Assembly: GCA_958009085.1 (NCBI GenBank)
Contig: OY253679.1
Location: 496,001-560,000 of the forward strand
From: Protoeuglena noctilucae
Lineage: Eukaryota
Direction: 5' to 3'
Length of the DNA: 64,000 nt
A model generated the notes under the pieces. That model made no database searches. It worked only from the letters and a program-made list of their open reading frames with translations, and was not told where the DNA came from. Position numbers and translations under genes: made by a program. Positions within the stretch are counted from its first letter, which is position 1; each line of letters opens with the position of its first letter. Of the stretch, positions 1,328 to 10,600 are shown in pieces.

Positions 1328-1923
1328 TACTTTCCACACGCCCCCCTGCCCGCCCGGCATCGTGCCCCCGACCCACACCACCGACGACAGCCGCTGTTGC
1401 CTTCCACGGACGCCTGAGCACGCGGCCTTGGCTGGAGACGATGGTTTCCTGCGGTCCATCGAGCGAGGGGCATGCCGTGCATGTCGCAGACACCGGGACC
1501 CCGCGGGGCAAAAGCTTGGCAGTCAGCCTGCTCGCACGCACACCAGAAGTCGCTTGTCACCACGCCAGGCCCGGGCAGCGACGTCGTCGCTTGGGGAAGA
1601 GAGCTGATTGATGCTGCCCTGCTGCAGGGAATGTTTTGGCCACGAGCTGTGATTCGACGGTTTTATTGGATTTACGGAAACGATGGGAGAGTTTTGCCTG
1701 TCTGTGCGCTGCGCAGCCGCTGAATGTTTACTGGCGGGTAGGGTCTTTCAAGTCTGAAGTCCCCTGCCCGGCCTCCCTTTCGATTCATCGCTTACACATG
1801 GGAAAGTAGCCGGCAATGGGAACGCTCGGTTTCGAGGGTGCGGCTCGCTGACCCGGGGCTGCGTCTTGCCGCCCCCCGCGGTCGGTGCGCGGTGAATTAC
1901 CGCCGAGTGGAGCGCGGGTCGGG

Positions 1924-4900
1924 ATGCGGGCTTTGCTGGTGGCGGGGCACCACCAGGGGGTGGGCAAGACGACGGTGTGCGTCGGCCTCATCGCGTGGAT
2001 GAGGTGGGTCGTTTTACTTTCCGTGTGGGAGGGACATCGGTGTTCCTGCAAGCCAGCCCGCGACGCCATGGGCGAGGATTTGAAACACCCGCGACGGGCG
2101 GGCTTTGTCGGCCTCGCATGGCCACACCAGAGCCATATGCGGCATGACGTTTGCATCCGCGCGTTGCCCGGCCTATACATTGCTTGGGAGTCGCGCCGGT
2201 GGGGCAGGCGGGAGCTTCGGCGCGCTGTGGCAGAGGCGGTCAGCTCCACACGGAGCAGAGCCCGGAGTGCGACGCGGTGCAGACCTGGAGCCCCTCCTCC
2301 CATCCCACTCCCGCCTACGGGTCCTGAACAACGTCGTGGGCCCGTTATTGCCTGCGCGAATGTCCCTCCCTTGCGTCCAGGGCCACTGACAACCTGCGTC
2401 CTTTCGGTGCTTTTCCCGCGCCTCTGTCGTCACCGGCCGCGTGACAGCGGCCTTTCCTGCATCACACATGCATATCGTTGCCTCCAAGCTCCCCGCTCGG
2501 GCACACGAGATGCGGCCCGCCGCCTCGCCAATGTGACACCCCCTTGCCGGCCCCCTGCAGGTCCCAGGGCCTTGTCGTCCAGCCGTTCAAAGTCGGGGTG
2601 GACTCCAAGGATCTCCTCGTGCTGTCGGAGGCCGCGGGGCGGGATGCGGTGTCGCTGGATGCGTGGGCGCTGGCCCCCGACCGGTTGACACAGACGTTTC
2701 ACCGGGCGTGCGAGGGCGCGGACGTGGCGGTCGTCGAGTCGCGTGCGGACCTCTTCGACGAGGTCGACGGCGCGCCGGGTGAGGGTTGGCGGACCCCCTC
2801 GCGGCATCGCAGGCCCACCAACGGCACCTGGCCGAATTGCGGATCGGTCATCCTGCCTGCAGAGTCCAGCAGCTCCGCCGCCGTCGCGCGCGTCCTGTCC
2901 CTGCCCGTGGTCCTCGTGGCCGCCTCGGCCTCCCGCTCCGCCGCCGCCACCCTCTGCGCCTTTGCGACCATGGACGCCGGGGTGCGCATCGCCGGCCTCG
3001 TCCTCACCAACGTGCCCCAGGGGCCCGTGGAGCCCCTGCGCGAACAGCTCACCGTCCTCGGGGTGCCGTTCCCGCTCCTGGGGACCATCCCCACGACGCC
3101 AGGCGCGGCGCTGCCCTCAGAGGCGGAGGTGGCGGGCCGGGCGGTTGGAGGGCCGTCAACAAGTGCTGGGACGGCGGGCAGGGGCGCAGAGAAGGGCAAA
3201 GCGTTCAGCATCGTCCATAGGGGGCTGCCCGTGGCGCCCCACGCCGAGTGCCTACGGCGAGTGCTTTTCTCCTGCAGCATGTGATGTGGCCCCTTTGTCC
3301 ACTCGCTCTGACGTCGCCCTCTCAGGCATCATCCCCGCGTCATGCCTCGCAGGGACCTCGTGCAGCAGCGCCTGGACGGCAAGCAGCTCATGTCCATCGC
3401 CTCCACCGCCTCCCCCCCACCGCCCCCACGGCCGGCGCGCCGCCGCCCCTCGCGCCCCGCGGCGCGCATTGCCGTCGCGTGCGACGCGGCCTTCTGGCGG
3501 TACCCGGGCGACAACCTGCGCATGTTGGAGCTGGCCGGGGCCGAGCTGGTGCCCTTTAGCCCCCTCTCGGCCGCGTCCCTGCCCCCGGGCGTCACGGGGC
3601 TGTACCTGGGGTCGGGGGCCGTGGAGGCGCACGCGGAGCGGCTGTCGCGGAACAAAGCGCTGCGGGCGGACGTGGCGGCGTTCGTGGAGGCCGGGGGCGT
3701 GGCGCTCGGGGAGAGCGGCGGGCTGGTCTTCCTGGCGCAGGCCCTGCTCCGGCGGGGGGGTGAATGGCTGCCCATGTGCGGCGTGTTGCCGGTGGAGGTG
3801 CGCGTGACGGGGACGCTCGTCTACGGGCACGTGGAGGTGCTGACACGGGGCAACCCCGTCATTCCGCCGGGGTGCACCCTGCGTGGGTCGGGTGAGCATG
3901 GCGAAGACGGTGGGGGAGGCGGATCTGCGGTCGGGACTCCCCCGGCTCGATTCCCTCGCTGTCTTCACCCGCAGTGAGCCACGACACGGACCTCCTGCTC
4001 GGGGGCGTGCCGCTGGGCCGTGCCGACTCCCGGGACGCCGACGTGGACCGCGCGGCCAAGGAGGGCATGGCCATGGCGTTCAAGGTGCAGGTCGTGCTGG
4101 GGGTCAACACGGGTGAGCGCGGACAGGGACCGGGACGCACCGCCGCCCCTGCCACCCCATCCCCTGCATGCGGTTGATGCGACCTGCCACCCCGGCCCCG
4201 CGCGCAGCAAAGGACCGGCACCTCGAGGAGGGTTTTTGCCGGGGATCGGCCCTTGCATCGCACGTCGCCCTCCTCCTCGCCTCCTGCCCCGAGGCCGCGG
4301 ACGCCGTGGTCGCCCGGTGCGCCCGCGTCCCTGCCGATGCCCTCGACGCGACCCTGGCCCCGGGCCGAGCCGTGCGCGCCCTCTCCGGGCAGGACGCAAG
4401 CGTCGAAGTCCTCTCCACGCCTCTCAGCCGAGCGTCGGGGACGCCCAGCACCCCGCTGCCCCCCACACCCCCCGACCACTCGCCCATGCGCGCCCTCGCC
4501 ACCTCCCACCTCGCCACCCCCACCGGCGGCTCCTCGCCGCCTCCGCCGTCCGTGAGCGCCACCCCCACGTCCGGCATCGCGCTCTCCTCCACCCCCGGCG
4601 GCCCCGGGTCCCCCGCCCTGGGCTCCACCGGGGCCTCCCCTCCCCACCTCGGCCCAGGCATGCTCCCACGGCGCGGCGCGGGGTCCGGTGAGATGGCGGC
4701 GGGGTCCAGGGGCGCGCGAGGGGCCGAGGACGGGGGCTCAGGGATGTCCTGGGTCGTGGGTCGCGGGGTGCGGGGGGGCACGGAGGAGGAGCGGGGGTCG
4801 CCGGTGTGGGTGGTGGGGCAGCCGGGGCGGTCCGGCTCGCGGCGCATCGGACGGCAGGCGTCCAGCACGACGGACCTGCAGGGCGTGGTGGCACAGGGGT

Positions 4901-7357
4901 GGGCAGAAGCGGTGAGCGTGTGATGCTTGGCTGCGGTGGGGGGCGGGGAGCGGGGGTTGGCATATGCCTCACTCACGCTGTCGCCTGTCGTTCCGTGCAG
5001 GCGGGTGCTGCGGGCCGCGAGGACCCCCCCGCCCGGGGCGCGTTGCAGCGGACGCACCCGCCCATGGGGGGGACACGGAGCTCGGCGGGGTCTGCGGCGA
5101 GCCGGGCGCTGGGCAGTGGGTTGTGGGGATGGCTGGCTGGAAACGGGGGACGGCCGAGCACATCGCGGGACGGCGGGGCTGGGCTGGGCCCCGGTTCGGG
5201 CGGCGGCATGGTGGGCCCCGAGAGCCTGGCGCGTGCGGGGGGGCATTCGCGGACGCTGAGCCGCGGGGAGCTGGAGGGGACGGGGGGGCGGGGGGGCGCG
5301 CCGGGCGACGTGTCGCCGATGGGCCTCAAGAGGGCGGGGATCGCGCATGTCAAGGTGGGACGTTGACTGACTAGGGCCGCGCTAACCTGCTCCGCGTTGT
5401 GTGCTTCTTTGGGGCCGACCAGCGATGCGCTGAGGTAGAATGCTATGCAAGAGAGCCAGCGGCGACCCGTCCCCCATGCCCCCCTGCGCAGCGCTCCACC
5501 AACAACCTCGCGTCGCTGGGGGCGACCGAGGCATCGGACGGAGCAGATATGGGAGGGGGGGCGGCAGTGCCAACCCGCGCGGAGGTGAGGAGAGGGGGTG
5601 CTGGATGGACGTGGCACGTCGCTCGGCGTGCGTCTGCGCGCGACTCGCCCAACCTAACCCCTTTATGTGTCCCTGCCTACCCGCAGTCGCGACTGGGCGG
5701 CGTGTTCCCGTCCTTCCCGCCCATGCCCCGTGATCACGGCTCTCCCGTCCATCACACGCACCCCTCTCACCACGCCCACCACCCCCACCACCACTCCACG
5801 GCGCGCGACTCTCACGGCCACGCACCCGCCCCGGGCCCGCGCGGGGACCCCAGCGGCAGCCCTTTCTTCTTCCCCCGCGACATCCCCGCCCCCGCGGTGC
5901 GCGCCCCGCCCGGCGAGGCCATCGTGAGCCTCTTCCCCGGCGGCACGGAGGTGCTCTTCAGCCTGGGCCTGGGCCCCCGCGTGGTGGGGGTGTCGGACCG
6001 GTGCGACTTCCCGGCCGAGTGCGCCAAGGGGCGGCACGTGGTCAGCGCGTTCCGAGAGCGCGCGGTGGGGTCCGTCGACGCCCTGGGCCTGTCCGACACG
6101 GCCAGCGTGTCGGGCGTGTCAGCCGGGCACAGCGCGGGGAGCGTGTCCGAGGGGCGGCGGGGGCGCGGGGCGCCGTCGGACTGGACGGGGACGGTGGGGT
6201 CGAGCCAGGGCGGCAAGGGGGCGCGCTGGGACGGCGTGGGGAGTGGCGCTGCCCCCGAGGACGAGATTGTGTGGGTGGACACGGGTGAGCGGGTGTACGC
6301 AAACCCAAGGGGCTCGCATGGTGGGGTCCTGCCATGCGCACGTGCGGATGCCTACCCCCAGCATCGCGTTGCCCCCAGACTGGATCCTCCGAGAGGGCCC
6401 CGCGCTGGTGGTGGCGCCCGTCCTGGCCATGCACCCCGAGGCGCTGGCGAGCCTCTGCCGCGCGGGGGTGGTCGACGCGACGGGCCATTCGGTCCTCCCC
6501 GGCACGTCCGTGCTGCAGCTGCCCATGGCCAGCGTGCACGACGCCCTCGAGGCGCTCTCGGTGGTGGGGCGCGCCACGGGGGTCGGCGAGCGCGCGGAGG
6601 ATTTGGAGGAGAAGCTGAGGGACAAGCTGGCGAGGGTGGCGCGGGAGGCGCGGCGGCGGCGCAAGGGTGAGGGGGGTGTGGAAGGCGGGGATGCGTGAGC
6701 GCTGAGCTGCTGCCTGTGTCCCGGCGGGGGGACTTACTGTGTCGTGAGTCGGTCCCGGCCCTGTCGCCCGCAGACCCTCCGCGGGTCCTGCTCCTGCGGG
6801 GAGGCTCGCCGCTTCTGGTGGGCGGCGAGTGGCGCAGCGAGCAGCTGATGCTCGCGGGAGGCACGGGCATGCTGCGGGTGAGGCACCGCGCTGGACCCTC
6901 CCCCGCCCGCGCTGCCCGCGGCTGGCAGCCCCCCCTCATGGCGGCGACCGTCGTGCGACTTCCGTGGCTGCAGCCCCTGGACGCCTCCGAGTACATTTCC
7001 TGGGACGCCGTGCGCGAGTTCGACCCGGAGGTGATCGTGCTGGCCGCCGACCGGGACGCGGCCCCTGGCGAGCCCCCGACGGCGCAGCTGGCGGACTTGG
7101 CGCACCACAAGGGGTGGTGGGGCATCAAGGCGGTCCACGAGGGCGAAGTCTACGTCCTGTGCATGGGCGCTGAAGACCTGGTCAACCGCCCCGGCCCACG
7201 CCTGGTGGACGGCGTGGAGGCGCTCGCCCACATCCTGTCGGCCGACACGGGGAAGAAGAAGGGGCCCCTGCCGCGGGGGTCGGTGCTCAAACTGGGGCTG
7301 CAGAAGGGCGGGCGCTGCCGGCCCAAGAACCTTGTCCACTTCTTCGCCAAAATCTAG
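1924..7357 (+). CDS. Fusion protein: CobB/CbiA-like (cobyrinate a,c-diamide synthase fold, degenerate) + low-complexity/His-rich linker + BtuF-like periplasmic-binding-protein domain (~11 exons)
   Basis: N-term LLVAGHHQGVGKTTV..VQPFKVGVD..SLDAW..DVAVVES..LPVVLV; GATase-like RIAVACDAAFWRYPGDNLRMLELAGAELVPFSPL..GLYLGSG..GESGG; C-term IVSLFPGGTEVLFSLGLGPRVVGVSDRCDFP..ISWDAVREFDPEVIVLA..AVHEGEVY..NRPGPRLVDGVEALAHIL. Splice phases checked across the linker are compatible with one ORF. Confidence 0.8.
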
Positions 7358-7663
7358 CAGGGACACGCTGCGATGTTTATTGCGCCGTTCCCCTCGATCT
7401 GTTCGTTGGGCGCTGTGACCGGAGCGGCGTTGCCCGCGCTGTGCCCGCTTGTTTTTCGTGACATCAGAAGCATTTGTGCCTGGACATGTTGGTTGGCCCC
7501 GCCTCGCGCGCTGCAGTGAACGCGCATGGTACAAACCAGTTTGCCCTCTCCTGCTGACACGGTGGCATGGCAAACGCACGATTGGTCACGAAACGGGACA
7601 GCGAGTGCGAGTGCGAACTCAGACGGGAAGTTCGTCGCCGGACGGCGGGATGCCCACCCGGCC

Positions 7664-10600
7664 ATGAGCGCCGGGGACGTCGAAAGCGTTCCGGCAATCG
7701 TGCCAGAGACGCCAAGCCTCCCGGACCTGCCCGCCACGAGGCAGGTGTACGTATGGGGCGCAGGAGACCTGGGGCAGCTTGGGACGGGAACGAGGTGACG
7801 CTCCGCCGTGCGCTATCCATTACTTGACTGAAAAATTGCTCCTGTCGAGTTGGAGCCTCGCGCGCAAGCTCTCTCGCGCTGCCCGGGACGCTTTTGAGTG
7901 TTTCTAATCGTGAAAGTCCCTCCGTGGCTCGCCTGCGACACATCTTTTGATCCCTGATGGTATCCTGAACAAGACAAATATGTTTGCGCTCCCCATAGTC
8001 AGCAAGTGAGGTCCTTCGACCTGCGCGAGTGACATTGGCTACCTGCTCACGGTGCTGCAGGTCCGCCCAGCTCCAGCCCGTGCCTGTGAAGGCTCTCGCT
8101 GGCGTTGACGTGGTTGAGGTCGCAGCAAGCATCTACAACACAGCGTTCCTGACGTCTCGGCAAGAGCTGTTCCTGGTGCGTGAAGGCCCACAAGGACCTG
8201 CACCTGCAAGCTTTGACTGCCCACGACACGCTACCAGGAACTGGCGGCAGGCCATAGCCTTTCCGGATTGCCCGGTTGTTGCAGGGCAGAGACGACGCAA
8301 TGTCACACCCCGTCCCACTTCTGTACGCAGTGCGGAGCCAATGAGTCGGGGCAGCTGGGTCGCCCAGCCCAGTCGGACGCAGAGCTGACGCCGGTGCGCT
8401 TGACGGCGCTGGACTCCTGCCGCGTCACGCATTGCGCATTGGGTCACTCGCACGTCCAGGCAGCGACAGGTGAGCGGGCACCTTGGTGCGTGCCCTGAGG
8501 GGGACGGACATATGATGTGGGCATTGCGATTCCTTGACATCGAAGGTGGACGGAGGCGGCGTCGCCAACTCGTGGTTTGTGCCATGCGTTCGGTGTGTGT
8601 TCACATGTACAGGTCACTTGTCCGTGCAGATGCTGGGGCCATCGCCACGTGGGGTGCGAGCGAGTTCGGGCAGCTTGGTCAAGGACGAGCGGGAGAAGAT
8701 CAGCCGACCCCGCGCGTCATCAAAGGAACACGGGAGGTGTTCTTCACACAGGCGAGGCTGGGCAGTGCACAGCTTGCGTCTTGGCAGGCCGCAACAGTGG
8801 TGGATTCTGCGACGATGTCCCCATCGGCTATGGTGCTTTGCATTGCCACTGAGCCGTGCTGTGTGCAGGGCACCCTCCAGGACGCCCTGCGCCGCCCTTG
8901 TGCTTTCAGGTTGCATGCGGGGCTGCGCACTCGCTTACGCTGACAGGCAGTGGCCACGTCTTCTCCTTTGGCTGCGGAGCTTTCGGAGCCCTGGGCCTCG
9001 GGGACGAAGACAACCAGGATCTCCCAGTGCTCGTCGAGGTGAGAATTTAGCTGTCGAAATAGGAAACCAGGAGCAGCATCAGAGGACAAGATAAGGCGTT
9101 GACTGCCATGGAGGCAACACTTCCAACCGTGGTTCGTTCTCTCCTGCGCAGCGCCTTTGGCCCGTGGCTGTGGTGCAAGTGTCGTGTGGGGACAACCACT
9201 CGGCGGCGCTGAGCATGCAAGGCGCCGTGTGGACATGGGGCCGCGGCAAGTTCGGGCAACTTGGGTTCGGGCACCTGCGCAACGTCAGGTGACACTTCTC
9301 GTGTGCATTCTTGTCGATTCCGCCGCGCAATGCATCCAGCCTGCAACGCATAAATGCGAGACTAGCCAAGTTGCTGCATTCATCCTTGGTCCGCTGTCCC
9401 TCCTAGTGACCCTGAACTCTTGCGGATTTCTGCACGCAGCGTGCCGGCTCGTGTGGACGCCATGTGGGAGGCTGGCGTGGAGGTCGCGCACATTGCATGT
9501 GGCGGCGACCACACCTGCGCCGTGTCACGCAACGGAGAGGTGTTCACATGGGGCCGTGGGTCTTGGGGGCAGCTCGGTCATGGAACCCTGGCGAACGAGG
9601 TTCTGCCGCGGCAAGTTGTGGCGTTGGCAGGCAAATTTGCGGTTCAGGCGAGTTCACAGAGTCCAAACGCGGAGGGTATTTACAACATGTGCTTACTGTG
9701 CCATGAGAGCAAGTTTGCTTCCCTACCTTCCGCGCAGGCGGCGGCAGGAAGCAGGCATACGCTGGTGCTGACCGTTTCGGGGCGGGTACATGCATTTGGA
9801 AGCGGGGAGAGCGGGCAGCTTGGAACCGGCACGGACGCCATGCATGCATTGCCCGTCCGCGTTCAGGGACTGCGGGGTCTGCATGTTACAAGGCTAGCTG
9901 CAGGAGGGTTGCACTCTTGTGCAGTGGGAGACTTGGGGGCGGGGTGGGGGCCAGCAGGTATTCGAACGGGGCAGGCATCGATGGATAAGGGACCACGGGT
10001 CCCCGGAGCTGGGATGGGATTCCACCGAAGGTGCGCACGCGCACAGCTGGAGGCATTGGTAGCTGAGACTGTGAACTGCCGACAACGTCGTGTCTTACTG
10101 CGTTACCAACGGTCTGTTTATCTTAACGCAGGGAGATGCCCCCTTTGCTGGAGCTTGCCCAAGTGGCGGCAAATCCCTTGGCTCCTCGCAAGGCAGGTGA
10201 CTCACCATCATTGTCAAGGGACGCCATGAAGCGCTCTTGACTTGCAGGCTATGTGTCTTTCTTTTCCTTCTTGCCCCTCACCCTCGCATGCACCCCACAG
10301 TGGCGGCAGCGGCGCGGGCGGTGGAGGATGTCTTCTCGTCCCCAGGAATGATCTTGGCTGGGTTCGCCGTAGAGACACCCACGCCTGTGGACGGGCGTCA
10401 CGGGCTTGGCGCAGGGCCGCGGGTCAGTTCGTGGGAAGACGAGGAAGGCCAGGAGACTCCGGATCTAGCATCGCCATCGGTCATGCGGGCTCGGAGCCGC
10501 ATTAACCCCCACTTCCATCCCCCCGCGACAGGGTACAGGTGAGATCTTCAGCGTTGCCCGGTGGATTCTGTTTTGGCAGGTTTTTTTCGGAGCCCGTTTA

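Follow-up and report, generated by a model that had tools for sequence, protein, structure and literature searches.

A CobB–BtuF-like fusion gene of Protoeuglena noctilucae belongs to a conserved eukaryotic family and is a candidate for cytosolic corrinoid handling

CobB and CbiA amidate the a and c acetates in reactions that consume ATP and glutamine, as described in passages of a paper on this chemistry (PMC7242693). According to parts of the papers on CBA1 and COBT, these two proteins are the only ones with experimental support in algal B12 uptake and remodelling, respectively; CBA1 (algal cobalamin acquisition protein 1) is linked to B12, and its predicted structure is described there as resembling periplasmic binding proteins including BtuF (PMC10828217). 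For the prokaryotic DUF71 family, sections of a comparative study report that 75 of the 102 bacterial and archaeal genes in the non-Dph6 cluster adjoin B12 transporter genes, and predict a role in B12 salvage for this 'DUF71-B12' subgroup (de Crecy-Lagard et al. 2012, PMC3541065). Here, we describe a gene that joins a CobB/CbiA-like enzyme module to a BtuF-like binding domain. It lies in a 64,000-nucleotide (nt) stretch of DNA from Protoeuglena noctilucae (assembly GCA_958009085.1, contig OY253679.1, positions 496,001 to 560,000 of the forward strand), which is called the window below and in which all positions are counted from its first letter. We are not aware of any description of B12 retention, transport or repair within algal cells.

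A 12-exon model, assembled by hand and by script from the genomic sequence, predicts one gene at window positions 1924–7357 on the plus strand, with a single open frame of 1,294 codons that ends at a TAG stop codon (7355–7357; exons in Table 1). This confirms the observation of one intron-containing CobB–BtuF-like gene at these positions. Our best reading, to which we assign a probability of roughly 0.55, is that the gene encodes a cytosolic corrinoid-handling fusion protein, about 1,294 residues long, in which the enzyme half probably no longer has catalytic activity. All 11 introns have the form GT..AG; ten of them are 83–137 nt long and the first is 557 nt, and their borders mostly read G/GTGAG at the donor and a pyrimidine run plus CAG at the acceptor. 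Short GT–AG introns are found in the genes of the window, as in green algae. One junction is uncertain (3247/3353 or 3128/3366), and the former was favoured because P0240, the closest relative of the enzyme module, aligns to window residues up to about 3239. The ATG at 1924 opens straight into the P-loop (MRALLVAGHHQGVGKTT), and no presequence is visible at the N terminus; the frame has a stop at 1849–1851 and no earlier ATG, with a further upstream exon being possible. A search of the plus strand from 1500 to 8200 found no TGTAA poly(A) signals, which is uninformative. The open frame, its codon-position signal and collinear homologues bear out the original prediction of one eukaryotic, intron-containing plus-strand gene without a signal peptide; matches to NF002204, GATase_3 and a prokaryotic BtuF-like profile likewise agree with its claim that a CobB/CbiA and glutamine-amidotransferase module is joined to a complete BtuF-type domain.

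The architecture, which the original prediction had singled out in this DNA, is not special to the window. A search with P0002 gave 78 matches, 18 of which carry both PF07685 and PF01497, and the named sources are Nannochloris, Micractinium tetrahymenae, Auxenochlorella protothecoides, Monoraphidium minutum, Aphanomyces astaci and A. invadans; the source labels 'Chlat1' and 'Mesen1' we take to be Chlorokybus and Mesotaenium. No land plant was among the named matches of this search, which is weak evidence of absence. When HMMER was run with P0038, 25 of the best 150 representative clusters were at least 850 amino acids long, and a search with the last exon of the window gene returned 18 matches, three of them long fused proteins with GATase_3 and Peripla_BP_2. 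Proteins that combine CobB/CbiA, GATase_3 and Peripla_BP_2 were found in chlorophytes, streptophyte algae and oomycetes, and the domain order of this family, CobB followed by GATase_3 and the BtuF-like domain in one polypeptide, is also that of the modelled window protein. The linker between the two halves measures 0–3 residues in oomycete-type members, 29 in Chlorokybus, 67–483 in chlorophytes and about 400 (G/S/P/A) in the window. Because the oomycete-type linkers are this short, the 400-residue linker of the window is a chlorophyte-style expansion of a true fusion. Judged by its sequence, the window gene evolves fast within a eukaryotic family that is conserved in green algae, streptophyte algae and oomycetes.

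The fusion architecture is already in the databases under automatic names, and our literature searches, whose coverage did not extend to subscription journals, found no functional study or description of it. The family is conserved, automatically named, functionally unstudied and not unique to the window. A CobB-like protein was noted in a haptophyte in parts of a 2014 transcriptome paper (PMC4057078), and the terms 'CobB', 'CbiA' and 'diamide' do not occur in the portions covered of the CBA1 paper and of a 2026 preprint on B12 uptake and remodelling in algae. Oomycete-type members additionally contain Kelch repeats and DUF5522. The latter is a 48-residue Cys-rich domain (CCG..CRHCP[WY]G) that lies C-terminally after the Kelch repeats in P0044, P0045, P0046, P0050, P0055 and P0056, and a literature search by its name found no paper.

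The BtuF-like domain is spread over four exons of the window gene. In raw open reading frame (ORF) pieces of this part, Pfam gave no match at E ≤ 0.01, and PF01497 gave one weak match on the window exons (E 0.018, 14.9 bits), the domain being broken by introns and inserts; the relative P0038 scores 70.1 bits on the same profile, with a cut-off of 27.5. A PDB sequence search with the last exon alone gave chance-level matches only. Profile comparison by hhalign aligned exon 9 with positions 11–56 (E 2.5e-11), exon 10 with positions 120–173 (E 2.3e-6) and exon 12 with positions 216–306 (E 2.6e-19) of A1, the closest prokaryotic family. Together with the full alignment, these three exons place both lobes and the backbone helix in the window, collinear with A1. 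The window keeps 44 of 51 conserved columns (86%), including both invariant cysteines and RPGPRL; rows P0073, P0075, P0080, P0095 and P0039 were left out of these counts and of the tree of this domain. All marks of the family, namely the CD[FYW]P cysteine, RPGPRLVDGVE and the tail ..LKL.L..G.RC.P..L..[YF]F, are found in the window (RCDFP; NRPGPRLVDGVEALA; VLKLGLQKGGRCRPKNLVHFF), and the tail is conserved across the alignment and ordered in the predicted model of P0038. The CxxC of the family is missing in exon 10, the TQxLCxVC motif having been lost in the clade of the window. The tree places the window together with P0001 (56% identity), within the chlorophyte clade. Just before the domain lies a His-rich tract (5732–5821, plus strand) with 13 His in 30 residues; comparable linker tracts, with at least 7 His per 30 residues, occur in P0002, P0019, P0024, P0025 and P0047, and may serve metal binding or be mere low complexity.

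The fold of this domain points to a tetrapyrrole-type binder. For an AlphaFold 2 (AF2) model of the prokaryotic relative P0005 (predicted local distance difference test, pLDDT, 89), Foldseek ranked Vibrio BtuF first and haem binders shortly after it, and BtuF was also the best PDB sequence match for a prokaryotic relative (E 2.9e-11). The AF2 model of the fused relative P0038 reached a pLDDT of 91 and a predicted template-modelling score (pTM) of 0.68; by target-normalised template-modelling score (TM), E. coli BtuF matched it best at 0.83–0.85, and haem binders followed at 0.81–0.82. Siderophore binders rank below both groups. On these models the fold appears to be that of a tetrapyrrole-type binder, with the specific ligand not distinguished. 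Neither the secretion signal nor the ABC (ATP-binding cassette) importer partnership of BtuF was found; the domain is C-terminal in a protein that starts with the P-loop. The premise that BtuF works in a different compartment does not apply here, since the relevant relatives are BtuF-like proteins without signal peptides.

These prokaryotic relatives begin directly with the first strand, and we examined the neighbourhoods of 80 of their loci, 35 of which were covered by an Rfam scan. In 13 of the 80 loci, an immediate neighbour on the same strand encodes a DUF71/PF01902 PP-loop protein. Cobalamin riboswitches were detected in five of the 35 scanned loci; in two batches of 11 loci each, 0/11 and 1/11 had one. 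In L013, L023 and L066 the riboswitch lies on the same strand upstream of operons with a receptor, DUF71 and the BtuF-like gene, in L040 it is on the same strand directly ahead of the BtuF-like gene, and in L048 it belongs to a divergent receptor. The gene order in L023 is TonB-dependent receptor, DUF71, BtuF-like, CobA/BtuR, FecCD, ABC ATPase and periplasmic binding protein, and 6/80 loci have a relative of the L023 receptor close by. The closest prokaryotic relatives are thus found in riboswitch-controlled operons that also encode BtuB-like receptors, BtuCD-type permeases, CobA/BtuR and DUF71-type proteins. By analogy, this genomic context strengthens the putative corrinoid link of the binding domain, the part of the original corrinoid proposal that gained support.

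Three further observations were made at these loci. In L065, from a Chloroflexi bacterium, a DUF71-like region and a BtuF-like domain apparently share one 493-residue ORF (5368–6846, plus strand); the DUF71-like hidden Markov model (HMM) match spans 5183–5998 (E 5.4e-45), and Pfam Peripla_BP_2 is found at residues 215–463. Such an ORF would be a bacterial analogue of the eukaryotic enzyme–binder fusion. In L072 (Acidimicrobiaceae), a DUF5522 gene (5752–5979) lies immediately upstream of the BtuF-like gene, and the gammaproteobacterial locus L013 has an SAH (S-adenosylhomocysteine) riboswitch (60 bits) at 34–112 on the minus strand, in addition to its cobalamin-riboswitch operon.

The same evidence bears on the possibility that the gene is single and its ligand is not a corrinoid, but another tetrapyrrole or metal chelate, e.g. 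sirohaem, a sirohydrochlorin-type compound or haem. We regard this as rather unlikely. The CobB homologue CfbB amidates Ni-sirohydrochlorin, by a chemistry treated in passages of PMC7242693. On the CfbB model the relatives reach 359–408 bits, though under its cut-off of 560, and it is the CobB equivalog cut-off that they pass, not that of CfbB. Haem-binding proteins are structurally as close as BtuF, and the two invariant cysteines, the His-rich linkers of some members and a NicO nickel/cobalt-transporter neighbour in L044 could suggest metal chemistry. Against this, the prokaryotic relatives are found in contexts (riboswitch, BtuB/BtuCD, CobA and DUF71) that are specific to cobalamin.

The enzyme half shows a mixture of retained and lost features. 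A P-loop of the GxxGxGKT type, as required in CobB/CbiA, is present, GHHQGVGKTT aligning with that of the family, and Pfam GATase_3 matches the raw ORF at 3312–3977 (E 3.7e-15). Single window exons scored 43.9, 38.5 and 105.2 bits against the CobB equivalog NF002204, a sum of about 188, with a whole-protein cut-off of 254; the relatives P0038, P0025 and P0045 reach 421–480 bits. In an alignment of 33 rows, GPDF[IL]DP..H is replaced by GVDSKDLLVL in the window, EGVMGLFDG by ESRADLFDE, GSTA by SSSA and LNKVGG..H by LTNVPQGP, and no clear ERHLGL corresponding to the PERHLGL motif was found in the window module. ECGG reads ESGG, so that the position of the glutaminase cysteine is taken by serine (AGC, 3714–3716); we take this cysteine to be the nucleophile, as in class-I amidotransferases. 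Neither the conserved CobB synthetase motifs nor the catalytic cysteine is found in the window, though the GATase_3 domain is present.

To quantify this, 112 CobB columns were used that are each at least 85% conserved in the other rows, with 26 rows counted; P0036, P0003, P0022, P0055, P0047, P0026 and P0095, in which much of the module is missing, were left out of the counts and of the tree. The window keeps 80/111 conserved columns, the lowest of the 26 rows, and the bacterial CbiA rows keep 86–89%. Its terminal branch in the CobB-module tree is 2.72, with a median of 0.53, and the acceleration of its lineage is about fourfold by the sum of branch lengths. P0240 (51% identity) has the same FWRY motif and has likewise lost the cysteine (EGAG); the degenerate state is therefore shared and old and not a fresh lesion. 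Partly degenerate CobB modules are found in P0004, P0003, P0040 and P0035 as well. A grouping of the window with P0004 in the CobB tree (Shimodaira–Hasegawa-like approximate likelihood ratio test, SH-aLRT, 94) was treated as possible long-branch attraction and not adopted, the BtuF-like tree placing the window elsewhere. Taken together, the residues suggest that the enzyme half of the window copy is probably non-catalytic. Because the nucleophile and many family-invariant positions are lost, enzymatic remodelling by the window protein, another part of the original corrinoid proposal, is doubtful.

Two side observations concern this module. The similarity of P0240 ends right after ..LRG, at the window intron donor 3891/3892, an indication that the position of this intron is conserved and that the gene prediction behind the P0240 record read through it. 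P0114, P0117 and P0118 are stand-alone CobB proteins of 433–482 residues that are 53–58% identical to the N-terminal module of Chlorokybus, and their lineage could be the source of the eukaryotic CobB enzyme.

The model and the homologue annotation might both have erroneously merged two separate genes, one CobB-like with its end at about 4923, the other BtuF-like with a start ATG somewhere in 5060–5560. The overall GC content is 59–77% over the first 12 kb of the window, 0.62–0.78 in the introns and 0.63–0.64 in the flanks. A low-complexity linker in DNA of 73–77% GC makes open frames cheap, and long open frames alone therefore mean little, leaving the codon-position signal and the homologues to decide. 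If the intron at 4912 is retained, the CobB frame stops at TGA 4921–4923; in-frame ATGs are present in exons 7 and 8, and some database entries are split into pairs on one contig (P0027/P0048, P0028/P0054 and P0031/P0053). Against two genes, five successive canonical and phase-compatible introns span the linker. The GC content at third codon positions (GC3) of the modelled frame is 0.77 in the exon of 93 nt and 0.87–0.98 in the other 11, and the linker has values of 0.91 (4340–4911), 0.87 (5001–5354) and 0.87 (5687–5900); it is thus precisely the frame joining both halves in which the linker resembles coding sequence. Seven full-length fused homologues (P0025, P0024, P0034, P0021, P0022, P0002 and P0038) match both halves collinearly over 2472–7345. 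Distant taxa are also fused, with linkers of 0–29 residues, and so is P0046, whose source label describes it as the complete ORF of a transcript record. We therefore consider a pair of genes improbable.

No better a candidate is a functionless, decaying relic on its way to a pseudogene, to which the longest branch and fewest conserved columns of the CobB module and the low-complexity inserts within both modules might point, since the 12 exons are free of frameshifts and internal stops with intact splice sites and strong GC3 throughout, the BtuF-like domain keeps 86% of its conserved columns with both invariant cysteines and RPGPRL, and the relatives P0240 and P0001 (51–56% identity) share the same state and are still open.

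Based on these findings, we propose the following working model for a corrinoid-handling fusion protein. From N to C terminus, the protein would consist of a P-loop ATP-binding domain, a class-I glutamine-amidotransferase domain, a disordered linker with a His-rich tract, and a BtuF-like class-III domain with a Cys tail. In the cytosol, the BtuF-like domain would capture a corrinoid, which could be B12 itself or a form that is damaged or incomplete. In canonical members, the CobB module would amidate carboxylate side chains of the bound corrinoid with ATP and glutamine, as salvage or repair. The window copy most likely serves to bind or escort corrinoids, without catalysis or with ammonia-dependent activity at most, and might be switched by a nucleotide; this role is proposed because the cysteine is replaced by serine and many synthetase invariants are gone, while fold, P-loop and binding domain are kept.

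Several results weigh against this model. Neither the fold nor the sequence distinguishes a B12 binder from a haem binder, the latter scoring almost as well, and among the relatives and window exons scored, no NCBIfam equivalog claims the BtuF-like domain. The pTM of 0.68 of the P0038 model gives no confident domain–domain arrangement that would back a hand-over of substrate. As to genomic context, 67/80 prokaryotic loci are without a DUF71 neighbour, 30/35 scanned loci are without a cobalamin riboswitch, and cobB adjoins the BtuF-like gene in 0/80. The lineage of the window and P0001 is also accelerated in the BtuF-like domain, about 1.8 times by the sum of branch lengths. Finally, acidic residues are retained in the synthetase motifs of the window (GVDSKD, VES), and Fresquet and Raushel reportedly found both Asp in GPDYxD, and the Glu in EGxMG, to be essential for the synthetase half-reaction. 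With these acidic residues retained, the window copy may still have ammonia-dependent activity.

A broader reading is tentative, and we would sooner doubt it than adopt it. The family as a whole might be an unrecognised eukaryotic system for cytosolic corrinoid salvage or repair, in which the BtuF-like domain holds imported corrinoid and the attached enzyme (CobB in eukaryotes, DUF71-type proteins at some prokaryotic loci) restores or completes side-chain amides, the window lineage having become a pseudoenzyme that acts as an intracellular B12 chaperone or sensor. If true, this would be the first candidate for an intracellular B12-handling machinery of algae. The fusion family is a candidate for the missing intracellular B12 step in that it is cytosolic, occurs from green algae to oomycetes, combines a corrin-amidating enzyme with a B12/haem-type binder and has bacterial relatives in cobalamin-riboswitch operons. 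It also ties in with the 2012 prediction of B12 salvage for the DUF71 subgroup, for which we found no experimental follow-up in the portions of the literature covered. The window copy itself offers an evolutionary case of a degenerating enzyme half beside a conserved binding half.

Table 1. Exons and features of the CobB–BtuF-like gene in the window
Feature	Position	Strand	Description
Exon 1	1924..2003	+	ATG 1924-1926, then P-loop GHHQGVGKTT 1945-1974; aligns with GxSGVGKT of homologues
Exon 2	2561..2778	+	CobB synthetase part; NCBIfam NF002204 43.9 bits, E 1.5e-11
Exon 3	2863..3247	+	remainder of ATP-binding domain; NF002204 38.5 bits; 3' end uncertain (alternative 3128)
Exon 4	3353..3891	+	GATase_3 domain; Pfam E 3.7e-15; NF002204 105.2 bits
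Exon 5	3975..4112	+	end of GATase domain; family GH/QxxH is GSVSH over the exon 4/5 junction
Exon 6	4208..4911	+	C-terminal helices of CobB module EEGFCRGSALASHVALLL to ~4340, then P/S/G/A-rich linker; homologue tblastn 4120-4770
Exon 7	5001..5354	+	low-complexity linker; phase-compatible GTGAGC/CAG splice sites; GC3 0.87
Exon 8	5492..5584	+	low-complexity linker; weakest coding signal, GC3 0.77; 93 nt
Exon 9	5687..6284	+	His-rich tract, start of BtuF-like N lobe (~5906, IVSLFPGGTEVLFSLGLG), low-complexity insert
Invariant Cys of CDFP motif, exon 9	6002-6004	+	BtuF-like N lobe
Exon 10	6379..6666	+	remainder of N lobe and long backbone helix, BtuF-like domain
Exon 11	6774..6877	+	start of C lobe RVLLLRGGSPLLVGGEW; from alignment and gene model
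Exon 12	6974..7357	+	C lobe NRPGPRLVDGVEALAHIL; conserved C-terminal tail; stop codon 7355-7357
C-terminal tail with invariant Cys	~7268-7354	+	VLKLGLQKGGRCRPKNLVHFF

The fusion gene is followed on the same strand by an intron-containing gene for an RCC1-repeat protein (7740–10230), the first RCC1-like exon of which starts about 390 nt past the stop codon of the fusion gene; Pfam RCC1 matches the ORF at 9366–10229 with E 4.6e-32. Upstream, positions 1–642 of the plus strand hold an open-ended R/D/E/G-rich ORF (RERDRDR... repeats, 77% GC) without a Pfam match; it could represent the end of an RS/RD-rich protein, or no more than an open frame.

Compared with known systems, CfbB (Ni-sirohydrochlorin a,c-diamide synthase of coenzyme F430 synthesis) belongs to a methanogen pathway and has no binding-domain fusion, and the eukaryotic relatives stay below its cut-off. 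CBA1 differs from the window protein in that, by the description in the parts of its paper covered, it has a signal peptide, is targeted to the endoplasmic reticulum, lacks a CobB module and is required for uptake (PMC10828217). CobB/CbiA (NF002204, TIGR00379; Pfam CbiA and GATase_3) share the two-domain order, the P-loop and the fold, and the eukaryotic relatives pass the equivalog cut-off; unlike these enzymes, the window gene is eukaryotic, intron-bearing and fused to a binding domain, with Ser for Cys and altered GPDYxDP, EGxMGLxDG, GSTA and N..GG..H motifs. With BtuF (PDB 5ysc, 1n2z and 1n4a), the binding half has the class-III two-lobe fold and the backbone helix in common (target-normalised TM 0.78–0.85). 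Unlike BtuF, it is part of a eukaryotic protein without a signal peptide or transporter partner, its identity to BtuF is about 15–23%, its B12 binding is putative, and of its two invariant cysteines one is in CDxP and the other in a structured C-terminal tail. The closest relatives of the domain are the prokaryotic BtuF-like proteins without signal peptides that are encoded beside DUF71 and have the motifs IVSLxPxxTE, CDxP and RPGPRLxDxxE in common with it. They differ in that their partner is a PP-loop ATPase and not CobB and in that the genes are mostly separate, in riboswitch-controlled operons; they are likewise coupled to an ATP-dependent, amide-forming enzyme family, to which the domain is apparently fused in L065.

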